This document shows positions 12,734 through 27,756 of a DNA stretch of 27,756 nucleotides, one piece after another. Location: the IMG/VR virus record IMGVR_UViG_3300038312_000316; one strand, written 5' to 3'. Origin of the DNA: a virus. A program made the position numbers and the translations under genes. How positions within the stretch are numbered: the stretch's first letter is position 1; every line of letters starts with the position of its first letter. The notes below the pieces were generated by a model. It worked only from the letters and a program-made list of their open reading frames with translations, ran no database searches and was not told the DNA's origin.

Positions 12734-12949
12734 TCACCGCCCCTCACGTTTATATCGCTCCCTTCTCTCCTGCTTGATCCGCTCCCGATACTCCGGGTCG
12801 GTCGCATACCGCTCCTTCGCCCGTGCATCGACGCACTCCGCACACCAGGACATCCGCCCTTGCTTCCAATATGCTCTCGGCCGGAACGCGGACAGGGGGA
12901 GGGTCCGCCCGCATTGGGTGCAGGTCTTCACCTCCTCCTCATCAGTCAA
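12734..12949 (-). CDS. Zn-finger protein resembling the N-terminal module of viral HNH proteins, 71 aa
   Basis: KTCTQCGRTLPLSAF...G..SWCAEC followed by a charged helix. Confidence 0.75.
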   Translation of the reverse strand: MTDEEEVKTCTQCGRTLPLSAFRPRAYWKQGRMSWCAECVDARAKERYATDPEYRERIKQERRERYKREGR

Positions 12950-13703
12950 GAGCTGCCCCCCGTAGCTCTCCGTGCGAAACCTCGCACTTATCGATATACA
13001 CCGTGATATGGCAGGCCGGACAGGTCGTCCGGTGCTGTGACCCCCCGCGATACAACCACGAGTGACCGCACTTGTGACACCGCAGCGGGATCCCCTTCAT
13101 CCGGCGGGCGTGCTCCTCACAGTACGCCCGCACCTCCTCGATACTCTCCACCTCGTCGGCCCCCTCCCCCACGAGGGCCTGCCCGTGCTTGTCCACGGCC
13201 CACACCGGGTAAGCAGTATCGACCCCCTCCGGGATTGGGGCGGAGGGGAGCGCGTCCATCCGTATGTAGTCCTCCGCTTTCCGGTCGGCCCGGTCGGCGA
13301 TCTCGTCCAGTTTCGTGAGCATCTCCACCAACCGGGACACATCCTCCGTATCCCAGGCTCGGATCTCCCGCGCGATGATCCGGGCGGCCCGGTCGAGGAC
13401 CTCGAGGTACGCGGCCCGGTCGATCCCCTCCAGAGTATAGAGGGCCTCGTCGTAGTCCTCCTCGAACCAGATAGGCGGGTCGTCCTCGATCGCCACGGCC
13501 CGCTCCCCGAACGTACTATCTGCAAACTCTCGGAGCGGGTAGAGAAATATAGCCAAAACCAGATCCTTACGATCGCTCTCTGTGAGCGCATCAAGGACCC
13601 CTATTCTAAACTCATCCAGCGCGAGGTACTCCCGCGCTTCGTCGTAGTCGAGCCGGACGCAGACCGCCGGCTCACCGTTCCAGGTGGTAGTTTCAGATCT
13701 CAT
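12942..13703 (-). CDS. Acidic 253-aa protein with C-terminal Zn ribbon, translationally coupled to the RAMP-like gene
   Basis: ATGA overlap at 13700-13703; LRCHKCGHSW...TTCPAC. Confidence 0.8.
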   Translation of the reverse strand: MRSETTTWNGEPAVCVRLDYDEAREYLALDEFRIGVLDALTESDRKDLVLAIFLYPLREFADSTFGERAVAIEDDPPIWFEEDYDEALYTLEGIDRAAYLEVLDRAARIIAREIRAWDTEDVSRLVEMLTKLDEIADRADRKAEDYIRMDALPSAPIPEGVDTAYPVWAVDKHGQALVGEGADEVESIEEVRAYCEEHARRMKGIPLRCHKCGHSWLYRGGSQHRTTCPACHITVYIDKCEVSHGELRGAALD

Positions 13704-14239
13704 TCCTGCCGCTCCCATGCCGTCACCATAAACCGCCCAAACGGCCCTTTCCGCTCGGGCCTGAAGTCCAGCAGCCCAACCCGGGCGCCGGCATCATCAA
13801 CCACCGTCCGAAGTTGCTGCTCTGTGAGCAAGTCGGGGTCGTAGTCCAGGGAAAACATCGTCTCCCAGGCATCTATCCGGGGCCGGACCCGCACGATCCG
13901 CCCCTTTGTCGCCGGGACCACAACGGCCCGGGCGTCGATCTTATAGGTCGTCGTGCCAAGACTGCATTGATCCGGGTCCACGAAGACGCAGGCCGCCACA
14001 GGCTTCTGGAGGGTGGCGCGCCCCTTGCCCTTAGAATACGTCGCCGCAGCGATCAGGGCCCGCTGAATCGCAACGCCCGGGATATAGAGTTCTTGCGTCT
14101 CTCCGTCCCGATAGGCCGCAATCTCGGCCTGCTCTTCCCTACTCTTCTTCTCGATTGCCTGTATGGGTTCCAGGGGGAACCGATGCATCAACAGGGGCGA
14201 AATGCCTCGTATTTTAACGTTTACGCGATTGTTTGCCAT
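13700..14239 (-). CDS. RAMP/Cas7-like RRM-fold protein; Vipr-like RNA-guided DNA-binding protein, 179 aa
   Basis: First strand VKIRGISPLLMH, then LYIPG.AIQRAL..AA, GRIVRVRP..W...F, and a C-terminal Gly-rich loop AG.RVGLLDFRPERKGPFGRF. GAGGT RBS. Immediately downstream of the GGY-NN tract. No other cas genes are present. Confidence 0.8.
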   Translation of the reverse strand: MANNRVNVKIRGISPLLMHRFPLEPIQAIEKKSREEQAEIAAYRDGETQELYIPGVAIQRALIAAATYSKGKGRATLQKPVAACVFVDPDQCSLGTTTYKIDARAVVVPATKGRIVRVRPRIDAWETMFSLDYDPDLLTEQQLRTVVDDAGARVGLLDFRPERKGPFGRFMVTAWERQE

Positions 14240-14293
14240 TGTTTTTACCTCGCCTTAATAGTGCCTCTCTCTCGCGAGATCATCAGCAGATTA

Positions 14294-14413
14294 CCGGGCA
14301 CAGGTTCGACCCCGCACCCGGCTCACCGTGCCTTGCCCTACCGTGCCAAACCCCGCCTGACCCTACCAAACCATGCCGGACCCGGCCCCCAATCCCTCGC
14401 CCGGTTTCCCGGG
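14294..14413 (-). ncRNA. Candidate guide RNA (vrRNA-like): GAAA-tetraloop hairpin, 13x GGY-NN tract, 3' hairpin
   Basis: Minus strand 14389-14325 reads GG GGC CG GGT CC GGC AT GGT TT GGT AG GGT CA GGC GG GGT TT GGC AC GGT AG GGC AA GGC AC GGT. 5' hairpin CCCGG-GAAA-CCGGG at 14413-14400. 3' hairpin CCGGGUGCGGG-GUCGAA-CCUGUGCCCGG at 14321-14294. Confidence 0.8.
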
Positions 14414-14479
14414 GTCATCGGGGTCATCGGGGTCATCGGGGTCATCGGGGTCATCGGGGTCATCGGGGTCATCGGGGTC
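14411..14479. repeat. Tandem repeat (GGGGTCATC)x7 plus a partial unit
   Basis: Directly visible; perfect units. Confidence 0.97.
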
Positions 14480-14538
14480 GGAGTCACGTGCGCAATCCTC
14501 GATCTCCTCGGCCGAGATTCCCTCCCCTGAGGGGGAAT

Positions 14539-14585
14539 GCGGCCCCGGGCCTCGAACCCGGGCGGGGCCTGGTTACCCTCGCCGC
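14539..14585 (-). ncRNA. 47-nt tRNA-like element lacking an anticodon arm, copy 1
   Basis: GCGGC GAGGGTAACCAGGCCCCG CCCGGG TTCGAGG CCCGGG GCCGC; begins right after the stop of 14586..15011. Confidence 0.65.
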
Positions 14586-15011
14586 TTAGTCGATCCACTC
14601 AACCTCAATCACGTCGACAGATCCATCGTCAGACTCGATCTGCACCTCTGCCAGATAGCGGAGCTCCTCCCGCCAAACCGATTCGTAGAGATCTGCGTAC
14701 TCGTCGATCAGATCCTTCTCTTCGGGGGTCAACTCGTCCGGAAATACATCCCGGATCCGCCCCTCGTTGATCCGCTCGTCCCTGGCCTCGTTCCACCACT
14801 GCGTCGTATCGTCTGAGAGCTCGGTCGTAACAAAACGTTCAGGGTCATAGATCTCCGGCCCTATGTAGTACGTTCCGCGCCCGACTGCGCTAACCTTCGC
14901 GCGGCCGTTCGACCAGACAAAAACCCCCATCTCGTCGCCCCCGGTCACGGTAGTCTCATTGTTGTGCAGGATCGCGTCTGCGATCTCCTTCCTAGATAGT
15001 TTGATTCTCAT
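14586..15011 (-). CDS. Acidic hypothetical protein, ~141 aa
   Basis: ATG 15011 (alternative 15026) with GAGG-like RBS. Confidence 0.75.
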   Translation of the reverse strand: MRIKLSRKEIADAILHNNETTVTGGDEMGVFVWSNGRAKVSAVGRGTYYIGPEIYDPERFVTTELSDDTTQWWNEARDERINEGRIRDVFPDELTPEEKDLIDEYADLYESVWREELRYLAEVQIESDDGSVDVIEVEWID

Positions 15012-15075
15012 TCTCGTTCGCCTCATTTTGTTCTGGTTTTGCCCTCTCGGGCGATTCCTAACGGATTTTCTGAAA

Positions 15076-15122
15076 GCGGTCCCGGGCTTCGAACCCGGGC
15101 GGGGCCTGGCTACCCTCACCGC
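15076..15122 (-). ncRNA. 47-nt tRNA-like element lacking an anticodon arm, copy 2
   Basis: GCGGT GAGGGTAGCCAGGCCCCG CCCGGG TTCGAAG CCCGGG ACCGC; 43/47 identical to copy 1; begins right after the stop of 15123..15548. Confidence 0.65.
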
Positions 15123-15548
15123 TCACTCAGTCCAAACATCCACGCGCACCGGGCGATCCCAGTCGCACGCATCGCCCTCGTCCTGCACGTAGGGATCGTA
15201 CTCCTTGCGCTCGACCCAGTAGACTTGAGCAGACCGCCCGGTCTCGATCTCCGTTGCAGAGGCCGCGTATGCGTCCTCCAGGAAGTGGCCGTCGGGGAAA
15301 TCAATCCGGCCCACACAATAGGCCTGTTGTGTGAGTCCGTAGATCCGTCCCAGGAACTCGGCCCACCCCCCCTCATACCCCTGCGCAACATCATACTCGT
15401 ACAAAACCTGCTCGCTGATGTGTTGGAGCAGGTCCGCGTTCTCCCGCTCGTCCTCATCGAGGAGGGCGATCCGGTGTTCATAGATTCTGTTCAGGGTTTC
15501 GAGGTCCTCCGAGGAGTACCCCTCTGTGTTTTCGGTCGTGTACTGCAT
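15123..15548 (-). CDS. Acidic hypothetical protein, 141 aa; N-terminal ~54 aa paralogous to 16149..16811
   Basis: Own promoter; YT.ENTEGYS..DLE.LN..YEHRIA.LDED.REN.D.LQHISEQVL.EYD is shared. Confidence 0.8.
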   Translation of the reverse strand: MQYTTENTEGYSSEDLETLNRIYEHRIALLDEDERENADLLQHISEQVLYEYDVAQGYEGGWAEFLGRIYGLTQQAYCVGRIDFPDGHFLEDAYAASATEIETGRSAQVYWVERKEYDPYVQDEGDACDWDRPVRVDVWTE

Positions 15549-15590
15549 GATCTTTCCTCTACTACATACTATGTATGCAAACTATAAATA
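15546..15590 (-). promoter_or_regulatory. Promoter with TACATA-C-TATGTA palindromic operator, copy 1
   Basis: 34 bp (15546-15579) identical to 16016-16049; TTTATAG box just upstream on the minus strand. Confidence 0.8.
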
Positions 15591-15598
15591 AGTTTCTA

Positions 15599-16018
15599 TT
15601 AGTCCTCTCCCGGGATCATGATGGTGATGCACGGCCGGCCCTCGGGATCCGCTGCACCAACCTGCATCTCCAGGGTGATCGTCCTGCGCTGGGCCGCTTT
15701 TTGGATGTAGATCACTTTAAACCGCAGCGCGTCCGCGTCCGGCCTGCATCGCGCAGCGAGCCGGGCCATCCATAGAGTATCCCACAGTCGCCCCTCTACA
15801 CTCTGACCGTACGGGACGGATCGCGGGTCAGGGGTGATGTACTCGTCCCAGAGTGTGCGGGTCACCGAGACCGGGATCGTAAACCCAGCCTCACGGGCCA
15901 TCTCGGATACGTCCACCTGATACCCGTCCCGGATCGCGTCCTCGCGGGTGTATGCGTAGATCAGATCCTCTTCCCCAAAGAGGGGGGTTTCAAAGGTTGT
16001 CTGGATTGTTTCGGTCAT
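15599..16018 (-). CDS. DUF6573-like protein, 139 aa
   Basis: YTREDAIRDG..VDVSE.AREAGF..PV.VT..LW...GQS.EGRLWD.L.M...P.ITIM.P.ED. Confidence 0.7.
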   Translation of the reverse strand: MTETIQTTFETPLFGEEDLIYAYTREDAIRDGYQVDVSEMAREAGFTIPVSVTRTLWDEYITPDPRSVPYGQSVEGRLWDTLWMARLAARCRPDADALRFKVIYIQKAAQRRTITLEMQVGAADPEGRPCITIMIPGED

Positions 16019-16148
16019 GATCTTTCCTCTACTACATACTATGTATGCATAGTATTTATTACTTTCTGTTTGGAGTGTTTGGGGGTGACCGGGCCCTTGA
16101 GGGATAGTATTAGATAATTATATATACTATGCATACATAGTATGTATT
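16016..16148. promoter_or_regulatory. Divergent promoters carrying operator copies 2 and 3
   Basis: 16033-16055 is the exact reverse complement of 16124-16146 (23 bp); TTATATATA at 16118-16126. Confidence 0.8.
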
Positions 16149-16811
16149 ATGGTAAAATACACCCACGAAAACACAGAGGGGTACTCCCCCCAGGATCTCG
16201 AAAATCTGAACGAACTCTACGAGCACCGGATCGCGGGCCTCGACGAGGACCAGCGCGAGAACCCCGACTACCTGCAGCACATCAGCGAGCAGGTCCTCCA
16301 GGAGTACGACCAGTTAGCCACCCTGACCCGGATTGAGCAGATCTACGGTACCCCTCGCCGCGAGGAGGGAGCCCCACCGGACCTCCCTGGGTCGGTGCGA
16401 TCCCTGATAGGCTCGCTCGGGTGCGAGCGGGGGATGCTGTACTCTCTCTGCGACGAGCTCCTCGGGGGTCGCCGGTACCTCTCGTTCGCGGAGTTCCAGG
16501 ACTCGCTCCGTGCAGAGATCGCGGAGCACATCGCCGCGCTCCAGCGCACCGCTGCGATCGGGCGCCCCTCCCCGTCCCCCCGGGACGAGGAGGGTGAGCT
16601 CGCCGAGTCCCTCCTCCGCTCGGGAGTATCCTCTCAGCAGGTCGCCGACCTCCGGCAGACCGGCGACCTCCGGTGCTCCGTCTGTGGCCGCGTCCTCGAG
16701 GTCGTCGAGGAGGACGGGGAGACGACCTGGATTGCCTGCCCGGTCTACAGCACCGGAGCACCAGACGCGGGGGAGCACTCCTCCGTGCGGCTGGACCGCC
16801 CGAGAGAGTGA
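16149..16811 (+). CDS. 220-aa protein: shared N-terminal domain and C-terminal Zn ribbon
   Basis: LRCSVCG...IACPV; apparently leaderless after the operator. Confidence 0.8.
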   Translation: MVKYTHENTEGYSPQDLENLNELYEHRIAGLDEDQRENPDYLQHISEQVLQEYDQLATLTRIEQIYGTPRREEGAPPDLPGSVRSLIGSLGCERGMLYSLCDELLGGRRYLSFAEFQDSLRAEIAEHIAALQRTAAIGRPSPSPRDEEGELAESLLRSGVSSQQVADLRQTGDLRCSVCGRVLEVVEEDGETTWIACPVYSTGAPDAGEHSSVRLDRPRE

Positions 16812-16968
16812 GTCCGCTAGCGGGGTCCGGCGGAGCAACCCGGCCGGCCCGGCGAACCTCTCCCCCGCACACCCCCGGCCCCCGGTCGGGGAGCAGGGAG
16901 AAACTTTTATCGTTATCGAGACCCCACTATCGGACTAGAGCGGCCGAGTGGCCCGGCGAGGTGCGCGA

Positions 16969-24299: not shown

Positions 24300-24680
24300 T
24301 TAGATCCCGCCTCCAGACCCGCTGTTGCCCCGGATCCTCATGATGGCCCAGATGATCATCGCAAGGATGGAGACCATCACGGCGAGCGTCAGGAGACTGG
24401 CGTTCTGTTCCCAGATGCCGACACCCGTGGGGATTTCCGTGTTCTCGGTGGCATTCCACTGCGAGCCGGCGGGGATCGACGCCGCACCGTCGATGTTGGA
24501 CCCGATCAGGGGTGCGAGAGAGAATACCGCCACGAGCACGATCAGCCCGATCGCCATCGTCACAGCGACGTCAATCATGGTGTCTCCGGACTCGTTCATG
24601 CGCCGGGAAAAGAGATTCTTCTGCGCTTCCTCTGCCCACTGCTTCAGAGCGGTGCAGGTTTTGAGAGGTTTCTCAAGCAA
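24300..24680 (-). CDS. Probable major capsid protein precursor, spindle-virus-type helical hairpin
   Basis: Polar leader, TM1 (VAVTMAIGLIVLVAVFSLAPLI), loop with an N-x-T sequon, TM2 (LLTLAVMVSILAMIIWAIMRIR). Own strong TATA box (TATAAATA at ~24727-24734, minus strand) and GGAGGT RBS. Start uncertain. Confidence 0.65.
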   Translation of the reverse strand: MLEKPLKTCTALKQWAEEAQKNLFSRRMNESGDTMIDVAVTMAIGLIVLVAVFSLAPLIGSNIDGAASIPAGSQWNATENTEIPTGVGIWEQNASLLTLAVMVSILAMIIWAIMRIRGNSGSGGGI

Positions 24681-24771
24681 AGTGTTTTTGATGACCTCCG
24701 ATGGAGAGTATATCGTCCTTTCGATTATTTATAGGTTTCCCGCCTAATGGGGGATGGGGAGGGGGGGCCGG

Positions 24772-26396: not shown

Positions 26397-27756
26397 GTGT
26401 GTTCCTCCATGATTGTCGAGAATAGGGTGATCACATCATTGTAGTCGAGCCAGCCGTTGCCGTTGAAGTCGAAGCACGCGATAGGCTGCGCGGTTTTCGC
26501 CCAGGCGAGATGTTGGAAGAAGACGGTGAGGTCGTTGTAGTCGAGGCGGTTGTTGCCGTTGATGTCGGTGTAGAGGCCGTTGCCGGCGAGGTCGCGGGGG
26601 ATGTTGGTGAGGCCGGGGAATGGTTGCAGGACGGCGACGATGATGTAGCTGGTTTTTGTCTCGGTGTCGCTGTCGTAGGGGTGCGAGGCGGTGAGGGTGA
26701 CGGTGTGGGCGCCGGCTGTGGTGTAGGTGTGCTGCGGGTTCTGCTCGGTGGAGGTGCCGCCGTCGCCGAAGGTCCAGAGCCATGAGGTGGGGCCGCCGGT
26801 GGAGAGGTCGGTGAACTGGACGGTGAGCGGGGTGAGGCCGGCGGTGGGGGTGGCGGTGAATTGGGCGGTGACGGGGCCGTAGACAGTGATGTAGTTGGTT
26901 TTGGTCTCGGTGTCGCTGCCGTATTCGTTGGTGGCGGTGAGGGTGACGGAGTAGAGGCCGGGGGTGGCGTAGGTGTGCTGCGGGTTCTGCTCGGTGGAGG
27001 TGCCGCCGTCGCCGAAGGACCAGAGCCATGATGTGGGGCCTCTGGTGGAGGTGTCGGTGAACTGCACGGTGAGCGGGGCGAGGCCGGCGGTGGGGGTGGC
27101 GGTGAAGGCGGTTGCGGGTGGGGCGGCGGGCGGGGTGGCGCTGTAGGCGCGGACAGTGATCCAGTCAACATACCCCACCCCGGTATCCCATTTCAGGAAC
27201 GAGGGGTAGAAATTACGATATGCGGGGGAGCCAGATCTGCTACAGATCAATGTACCGTCTGGATAGTAGGCATATTGATTGGCCACCCCCGTTGACGGGC
27301 ATACGTACCTGAAACGGTAGTAACTGTCTGGATACTTTGTCACTGGTGCATAGGAGGTTGAGCCGCCGAGCTTCAGTTCGACCATTCTGGTGTTGAAGTC
27401 GAGGATGATGAAATCCTTGTCCCGATATACTCCTTTCGTGTCCTCAAAATTTAGGTACATCTGATTCGAGGTTCCCGGGTTCCGAAGGGAACACTCGACG
27501 ACCACGTTGGTGAAGGGGTTATATGTGTTGATCTGCCCGGATGCGGATGAAGGGGCCGACGTAACGAGCTTGCCGTCTGAGACGGAGTGAGACGCTTGGG
27601 ATGTTGAGGCCCACTTCGTCCCCCACGCCAGCGGAGATGAAAAATCATCGAAAAATACATACGTCGCGCCCCCGTCGCTCGTGGTCGCCGCGCTCGGGTT
27701 GCCGTACCAGACTTGTAGCACCCCGGCAGCGTCCGCCCCCTCCAACCGCACGCAGA
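26393..27756 (-). CDS. Secreted modular adhesin, version B: DUF2341 end, different variable domain, 2x PKD, complete dockerin (5' end runs off the window)
   Basis: The frame is open to the window edge. Dockerin: DLAGNGLYTDINGNNRLDYNDL...FDFNGNGWLDYNDVITLF. Confidence 0.9.
   Translation of the reverse strand, partial: CVRLEGADAAGVLQVWYGNPSAATTSDGGATYVFFDDFSSPLAWGTKWASTSQASHSVSDGKLVTSAPSSASGQINTYNPFTNVVVECSLRNPGTSNQMYLNFEDTKGVYRDKDFIILDFNTRMVELKLGGSTSYAPVTKYPDSYYRFRYVCPSTGVANQYAYYPDGTLICSRSGSPAYRNFYPSFLKWDTGVGYVDWITVRAYSATPPAAPPATAFTATPTAGLAPLTVQFTDTSTRGPTSWLWSFGDGGTSTEQNPQHTYATPGLYSVTLTATNEYGSDTETKTNYITVYGPVTAQFTATPTAGLTPLTVQFTDLSTGGPTSWLWTFGDGGTSTEQNPQHTYTTAGAHTVTLTASHPYDSDTETKTSYIIVAVLQPFPGLTNIPRDLAGNGLYTDINGNNRLDYNDLTVFFQHLAWAKTAQPIACFDFNGNGWLDYNDVITLFSTIMEEHT
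27659..27756. repeat. 98-bp exact direct repeat of 1254-1351; 26556-27154 is also homologous to 1-632
   Basis: Base-by-base comparison; offsets are 26405 and 26555. Confidence 0.95.

Follow-up and report, generated by a model that had tools for sequence, protein, structure and literature searches.

The minus strand of IMG/VR virus record IMGVR_UViG_3300038312_000316 (27,756 nucleotides, called here the window in its whole length) carries a tract of thirteen GGY-NN pentamers flanked by two predicted RNA hairpins, a gene for a 179-aa Cas7-like protein, and an adjoining zinc-ribbon gene. An earlier note, made from the letters of the sequence, had read this arrangement as an RNA-guided system of the VIPR (Viral Interference Programmable Repeat) type, and we followed up that reading computationally. 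VIPR was described in April 2026: its Vipr protein is related to the CRISPR RAMPs, its guide RNAs (vrRNAs) consist of 9–16 YNNGG repeats and a structured 3′ tail, and the NN letters recognize double-stranded DNA (dsDNA) with one base skipped per unit, by which rival phages and satellites are transcriptionally silenced (10.64898/2026.04.26.720920). The same study, with which the note's description of these systems agrees, distinguishes seven types, mainly in phages and archaeal viruses (10.64898/2026.04.26.720920); a vap gene may or may not accompany Vipr and the vrRNA. Cryo-EM of the Vipr protein from SUSP1 located the GGY contacts at H17, R138, D177, W178, and R179 (10.64898/2026.04.26.720927). 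A phage-satellite study followed (10.64898/2026.10.15.759431), as did a survey in which a language model recovered 99 VIPR-like clusters (10.64898/2026.10.21.760802).

Results

Using a phase-aware scan, we located the guide tract at 14323–14387 of the minus strand. Its 13 GGY-NN units fall within the published range of 9–16, and the NN letters read, 5′ to 3′, CG CC AT TT AG CA GG TT AC AG AA AC GA. The earlier note had placed 13 GGY pentamers here at an exact 5-nt spacing, with plus-strand RCC at 14325, 14330 and so on to 14385, and both the spacing and the coordinates are exact. No other run of at least four in-phase GGY units occurs on either strand of the window, and in a looser scan the best ten-unit windows elsewhere reach only 5/10. 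Of 200 mononucleotide shuffles, 159 had a longest run of three units and 38 one of four, and a run of six, the maximum, was seen once. The tract lies on the same strand as vipr, and its last pentamer ends 83 nt before the start of that gene (the note had given ∼85 nt). Gene callers applied to ten near-identical contigs placed no gene between the upstream gene and the vipr open reading frame (ORF), which is the stretch that holds the tract.

The tract runs into a 3′ tail hairpin (14293–14322, minus strand), which RNAfold draws as a 12-bp stem closed by a GUCGAA loop (ΔG is −23.9 kcal/mol, z is −4.5, and none of 200 shuffles folds as well). A hairpin had been announced at this place with 11 bp; its presence holds, its length does not. 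For comparison we used a clade formed by the window and the loci L023, L024, L025, L029, and L069 (∼60% GC, Vipr 72–90% identical to that of the window). In these relatives the tail stem has a wholly different sequence and still pairs, and thus covaries, and the 6-nt loop is kept (clade consensus GUCNNA).

The vipr gene (13700–14239, minus strand) encodes a protein of 179 aa, which homology and an AlphaFold2 (AF2) model define as a single-RRM RAMP with a thumb hairpin and a Gly-rich loop. The motifs from which the note had argued (SPLLMH, YIP, and GLLDFRPERKGPFGRF) are all present. Pfam has no family for the protein, and the PHROG match, phrog_4652 (E-value is 3.9e-21), is of unknown function. 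A phmmer search with the single sequence returned one solved structure, PDB 36pp, deposited as ‘SUSP1 Vipr protein’ (E-value is 9e-6). We built a profile, A1, from 108 family members, which matches 36pp over its full length with an E-value of 3.4e-24 (profile positions 2–178 aligned to chain residues 1–191); its next match, Cas7-11, is insignificant (E-value is 0.15). In this alignment the SUSP1 contact residues H17, R138, D177, W178, and R179 correspond to H19, R119, D158, F159, and R160, so that the aromatic character of W178 is kept in F159, and R119 and R160 are conserved at 90% or more across the 108 members.

The AF2 model calculated with the 108-row alignment has a pLDDT of 97.5 (35 for the single-sequence model) and displays the RRM/RAMP fold that the earlier note had made a point to be checked. 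Its secondary structure elements follow the β-α-β-β-α-β order of an RRM, the thumb is a long β-hairpin at residues ∼100–122, and the Gly-rich loop spans residues 155–169. Csm3/Cas7 chains rank first in Foldseek (E-value is ∼5e-8), and VIA-align yields Z-scores of 13.2 with 6ifk_E and 11.9 with 6ifn_E, the latter being the Cas7 query used by the VIPR authors with a cut-off of Z 6 (10.64898/2026.04.26.720920). The family comprises 1494 proteins at an E-value of 1e-3 or below in a set clustered at 90%, many of them 65–70% identical, and 2524 representative clusters at the same threshold when clustered at 50% identity. Vipr relatives are also found in two bacterial metagenome-assembled genomes (MAGs), L031 (Anaerolineaceae) and P0029 (Deltaproteobacteria), and are 67–69% identical to the window protein. 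This identity is unusually close across domains and suggests recent exchange between bacterial and archaeal viruses in anoxic habitats.

The pairing of gene and tract recurs in every relative that we checked. All 12 IMG/VR loci with a Vipr relative (59–71% identity) carry one to seven GGY/NN tracts, which lie on the strand of the gene and directly before or after it and differ in their NN letters. Same-strand tracts beside the gene are likewise found in L023–L029, including a Methanoregula MAG, and in L069–L072. Altogether, the 22 distinct relatives' loci examined have same-strand GGY/NN tracts next to the gene in 22 cases, with NN letters that are all different, which answers in the affirmative the note's question whether homologous genes carry such tracts. 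Among close strains the guide is nearly constant. The identical Vipr protein is encoded on at least 23 contigs from several studies, and nine of ten inspected contigs encoding it have a guide that is identical letter for letter; the tenth, which has diverged flanks, shows a single change at the NN position of unit 12 (AC to AT). Another viral contig (L090:2280–3360) contains five guides, each following a conserved AT-rich element, UUUWAUGAAUUUAAUUUGGCGAGG, which represents another clade-specific inter-guide spacer.

A kink-turn-like motif precedes the guide tract (motif 1, 14391–14425, minus strand). A CCC/GGG stem leads through a GAU bulge and tandem GA/GA into a hairpin, whose loop is GAAA; this is the GAAA-loop hairpin that the note had seen ahead of the tract, and it is indeed located directly 5′ of it. 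A second copy (motif 2, 14260–14290, minus strand) reads CUGAUGA, a UCUC-GCGA-GAGA hairpin, and then GAGG, and would be the head of a second guide. In RNAfold both window copies form a stem, a 5+2 internal loop, and a hairpin, with a 4-bp stem in motif 2. We collected twelve copies from the six loci of the clade, which share the order CC, R-A-U, G-A, hairpin (often with a GNRA loop), G-A, GG. The flanks that form the closing stem are paired at positions −1 to −3 in 12 of the 12 copies, with four pair types at position −3 (C-G, G-C, U-G, and A-U). The inner hairpin varies in sequence and length yet pairs, and both GA dinucleotides are invariant. When the 3′ flanks were re-dealt among the copies, the observed pairing at −3 to −5 was reached in 11 of 5000 trials.

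Kink-turns such as Kt-7 and those of box C/D RNAs, which in archaea are bound by L7Ae, consist of a C stem, a 3-nt bulge, tandem G·A pairs, and an NC stem. The clade motif has in common with them a Watson-Crick stem ending in C-G, the 3-nt bulge, tandem sheared G·A/A·G pairs, and a second stem; it differs in having neither box D nor a guide function of its own and in sitting at the 5′ end of a vrRNA. The covarying arrangement makes it probable that the 5′ motif adopts a kink-turn RNA fold. There are as many motifs as guides, and the first guide of an array has a motif that is not preceded by a tail hairpin; we therefore assign the motif to the 5′ end of each guide. A search for the motif before GGY tracts in other viral contigs gave one match that passed the stem filters among the 121 pattern matches listed, and this one does not fold into a hairpin.

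Hammerhead ribozymes have been reported as interspersed in the vrRNA arrays of VIPR types I and V (fig. S19, 10.64898/2026.04.26.720920), and these arrays share with our clade a CUGAUGA-like heptamer, a hairpin, and then GA between guides. A hammerhead has the core CUGANGA…GAAA, a cleavage triplet, and three stems. We reject this reading for the element between the guides: all 12 copies have GAGG where GAAA is required, two copies have A at position 5 of the core (G in the hammerhead), and most have C at position 4. Unlike the hammerhead core, the flanks of the kink-turn-like motif are joined by the closing stem. Neither a hammerhead nor any other known ribozyme was matched in Rfam at an E-value of 10 or below, even when short stretches were submitted.

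The 5′ strand of motif 1 has been duplicated into a 9-nt tandem repeat (14410–14479, minus strand), which TRF describes as 7.8 copies of the unit CCCCGATGA (minus strand) with 100% matches. Its copy number is 1, 3, 5, or 7–8 among contigs encoding the identical Vipr. Between motif 2 and vipr, comparison with L023 and L025 identifies two leftover GGY-NN units, GGCGA GGTAA (14245–14254, minus strand). In these two relatives a full guide of 14–16 units occupies the equivalent place and abuts the start codon, and in the window the two units form a purine-rich, Shine-Dalgarno-like stretch ahead of the vipr ATG. We read them as what is left of a second guide that has eroded into the ribosome-binding region of vipr.

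On the other side of vipr lies a candidate accessory (vap-like) gene, so classified by its linkage (12942–13703, minus strand; 253 aa, or 258 aa if translation begins at an earlier ATG). The vipr stop codon and the start of this gene overlap in the sequence ATGA, and the protein ends in a C-terminal CxxC…CxxC zinc ribbon. Pfam returned weak zinc-ribbon matches and no significant family, and scores in the protein atlas stayed at or below 0.83, which is chance level. The gene is linked to vipr in five clade members, with homologues at L024, L069, L029 (before the guides), and L023 (after vipr). That the linkage survives rearrangement suggests that the zinc-ribbon protein may be a functional partner of Vipr. 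We do not equate it with any of the published vap1–6, because it belongs to no known family.

Upstream of the vrRNA, a tRNA-like minihelix (14536–14585, minus strand; repeat family D3) occupies the interval between the vrRNA and the stop codon of the upstream gene (14586). RNAfold resolves it into an acceptor-like stem and a T-arm-like hairpin with a TTCGAGG loop, although the fold z-score is only −0.4. A second copy follows the next gene (15072–15141); the two are 83% alike, and each stands directly after a stop codon. ARAGORN does not call these minihelices as tRNA. The arrays of L029 and L023 likewise have elements of this kind in front of them, and a possible role of the minihelix is that of an RNase P/Z processing site. 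Two further small hairpins are found between the stop codon at 14586 and the guide.

Farther upstream we identified three divergent copies of an AT-rich element of ∼50 nt (15546–15600, 16016–16070, and 16108–16156; repeat family D5). They carry a TTATTTATA-like box ∼36 nt before start codons and precede the genes at ∼15590 and ∼16060, and are probably promoters of an operon that includes the VIPR locus. In the simplest reading, one transcript would start at ∼15590, take in two small genes and then the guide, vipr, and the zinc-ribbon gene in turn, and be cut later.

We annotated 25 ORFs of the window, scanning all of them against Pfam and 15 against PHROGs. Apart from an internal part that is not the same, positions 1–1351 recur at ∼26406–27756, from which we take the contig to be probably circular or terminally redundant; its unit would measure ∼26.4 kb. 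The gene for a PKD-domain surface protein is present in two versions. The element encodes a serine recombinase, a PAPS-reductase-like protein, a DnaA-like ATPase, an HTH protein, a DUF6573 protein, and surface proteins with PKD and CarboxypepD_reg domains. None of the 25 ORFs matches a tailed-phage hallmark (terminase, portal, HK97 capsid, or tail family), and no capsid gene was recognized among them, so that the label of a non-tailed virus is plausible and unproven. The window contains no CRISPR repeat-spacer array, as the earlier note had stated, and no cas family appears among the 25 ORFs.

The only DNA similarity of the window to any deposited phage record is a 95-nt intergenic segment (16758–16852), which is 96.8% identical to an unannotated intergenic region (24615–24709) of Methanoculleus virus Blf4/L4768, a tailed virus found in biogas sludge. 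The nearest Vipr relative in a genome is that of a Methanoregula MAG (90% identity), and these two observations together point to Methanomicrobiales hosts. The ∼26.4-kb element is present in many anaerobic-digester metagenomes.

We finally decoded the guide as NN-x-NN-x, with one base skipped per unit, and searched for targets of its 26 NN letters. IMG/VR was scanned for exact matches to the full pattern and to three sub-patterns. The central 8 units gave 34 matches, equal to the chance expectation and none exceeding 21/26 when extended, and units 1–9 and units 5–13 gave 0. Units 2–11 matched twice in JGI metagenome contigs, both of 32% GC, with 20/26 and 23/26, where one or two matches are expected by chance. 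Among 401 genomes of the order to which the Methanoregula MAG with the closest relative belongs, there were 0 matches with up to 3 mismatches and 2 for a reversed control pattern. Blf4/L4768 reached 17/26 at best, compared with 16 for the control, and the related loci L001–L032 at most 18/26. Within the window itself there is no self-target at 16/26 or better and none within 3 mismatches, in agreement with the VIPR paper, whose controls found no self-targets on own contigs (10.64898/2026.04.26.720920).

Discussion

We conclude that the locus is a VIPR system, RNA-guided and carried by a methanogen mobile element, and assign this reading a probability of about 0.88. The earlier claim of a VIPR-type system with a Cas7-like protein is borne out by the fold, by the match of the family profile to 36pp (E-value is 3.4e-24), and by the tracts in relatives. 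Because the VIPR class has already been published, the locus belongs to a known family and is not a new kind of system. The repeat tract, the family, fold, and contact residues of the protein, the association of gene and tract, and the RNA structures that flank the tract are direct observations.

The mechanism that we envisage is modeled on SUSP1. The minus strand would be transcribed, probably within an operon starting near 15590, and the transcript would be cut into a vrRNA of ∼130 nt composed of the kink-turn-like 5′ hairpin, the 13 GGY-NN units, and the 12-bp 3′ hairpin. One Vipr protomer would then bind per pentamer, with H19, R119, D158, F159, and R160 sequestering GGY and presenting the 13 NN dinucleotides. 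The resulting filament would pass over one base in each unit, read a dsDNA target of the NNxNNx… form, and block its transcription; the target may be another mobile element that competes in the same methanogen. Formation of the ribonucleoprotein, the skip rule in the methanogen clade, silencing, and the nature of the target would all be as in SUSP1, by homology.

Several points weigh against this interpretation. A target obeying the skip rule was not found, with IMG/VR, the JGI contigs, the 401 genomes, and Blf4/L4768 all at chance level. There is no archaeal TATA-like promoter directly upstream of the guide (between the stop codon at 14586 and the guide), and the guide would therefore have to be expressed by read-through from the genes before it. 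That the minus strand is transcribed is itself deduced from homology to SUSP1, and experimental proof of the skip rule and of silencing is limited to bacterial systems of type II.

The best surviving alternative, which we nevertheless consider unlikely, is a vestigial or idle VIPR in which the protein and one guide persist, silencing has been lost, and no living target exists. The window has one full guide compared with two to four in close relatives, its second guide is down to two units, and a target turned up in no collection searched. An idle system would, however, not readily account for a protein that at least 23 contigs from several studies encode unchanged and whose GGY-contact residues are all intact, nor for a guide that stays constant while the neighboring 9-nt repeat changes freely. 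The blank target search is weak evidence, because coverage of methanogen elements in the collections and target databases is thin.

Still less probable is a role in cis, in which Vipr would bind the tract in its own mRNA leader and control its own translation instead of being guided to DNA in trans. The guide does lie in the transcription unit of vipr, 83 nt before the ATG, and the last guide of L023 and of L025 reaches right up to the start codon, with the purines for ribosome binding coming from the guide itself. An operator, however, would need neither the guides that relatives carry downstream of vipr nor their multi-guide arrays with different NN letters, and trans targeting of DNA has been shown for the homologous SUSP1 system (10.64898/2026.04.26.720920); regulation in cis could, moreover, coexist with guiding in trans. 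That the protein is an orphan Cas7-like RAMP with another job, such as RNA binding or cleavage, next to a chance 5-nt microsatellite is very improbable: among the solved structures of its library, Foldseek does place the fold nearest to RNA-targeting Csm3 subunits, but the gene is paired with a tract in every relative checked, homology to Vipr (E-value is 3.4e-24) far exceeds that to Cas7-11 (E-value is 0.15), and no CRISPR array is present in the window.

The VIPR reading places the locus beside the type II system of Escherichia phage SUSP1, with which it shares a homologous protein, the GGY-contact residues, and a structured 3′ tail, and it has in common with published VIPR loci a same-strand guide in the flanking intergenic space, a minimal locus on a mobile element, and the lack of both a CRISPR array and a self-target. 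It differs from SUSP1 in residing on an archaeal, Methanomicrobiales-associated element, in having Phe in place of W178, and in its tail: where SUSP1 has a hairpin-pseudoknot, the window has a simple 12-bp hairpin whose loop is of the GUCNNA type. Compared with published VIPR systems, the window has one guide and an eroded second one, and its linked candidate accessory gene encodes a zinc-ribbon protein outside the known families. A kink-turn-like hairpin stands at the head of each guide, a feature that is not mentioned in 10.64898/2026.04.26.720920, 10.64898/2026.04.26.720927, or 10.64898/2026.10.15.759431.

With Cas7/Csm3 (6IFN chain E and 6IFK), the window Vipr shares the RRM core, the thumb hairpin, and the Gly-rich loop (Z-scores of 12–13 over at least 160 residues), and it would, like them, bind with one protomer per repeat unit along the RNA. 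It is only ∼12% identical to these proteins and has no second RRM, and neither a CRISPR array nor other cas genes accompany it. The RNA period is 5 nt with a fixed GGY in VIPR, as opposed to 6 nt along the spacer in Cas7/Csm3.

The locus leaves the picture of what VIPR is unchanged. The one new element is the clade-specific 5′ handle, a probable kink-turn fold, which comes with a variable half-repeat. Combining these features, we tentatively propose, as a possibility that we hold to be doubtful, that host RNA machinery, and not a ribozyme or a Cas6-like enzyme, makes and bounds the vrRNAs of this clade. RNase P/Z would cut at the minihelix and free the precursor, an L7Ae-bound kink-turn would cap the 5′ end of the guide and set the start of the Vipr filament, and the 9-nt repeat, in 1 to 8 copies, would tune the amount of guide.

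VIPR experiments to date are all bacterial, and the locus provides a clean, minimal archaeal example that comprises a single guide, a single Vipr, and a linked zinc-ribbon gene. If the kink-turn-like 5′ handle is real, it would be the first hint of a host RNA-binding protein in vrRNA biogenesis, and guides engineered for archaea would gain a defined 5′ boundary.

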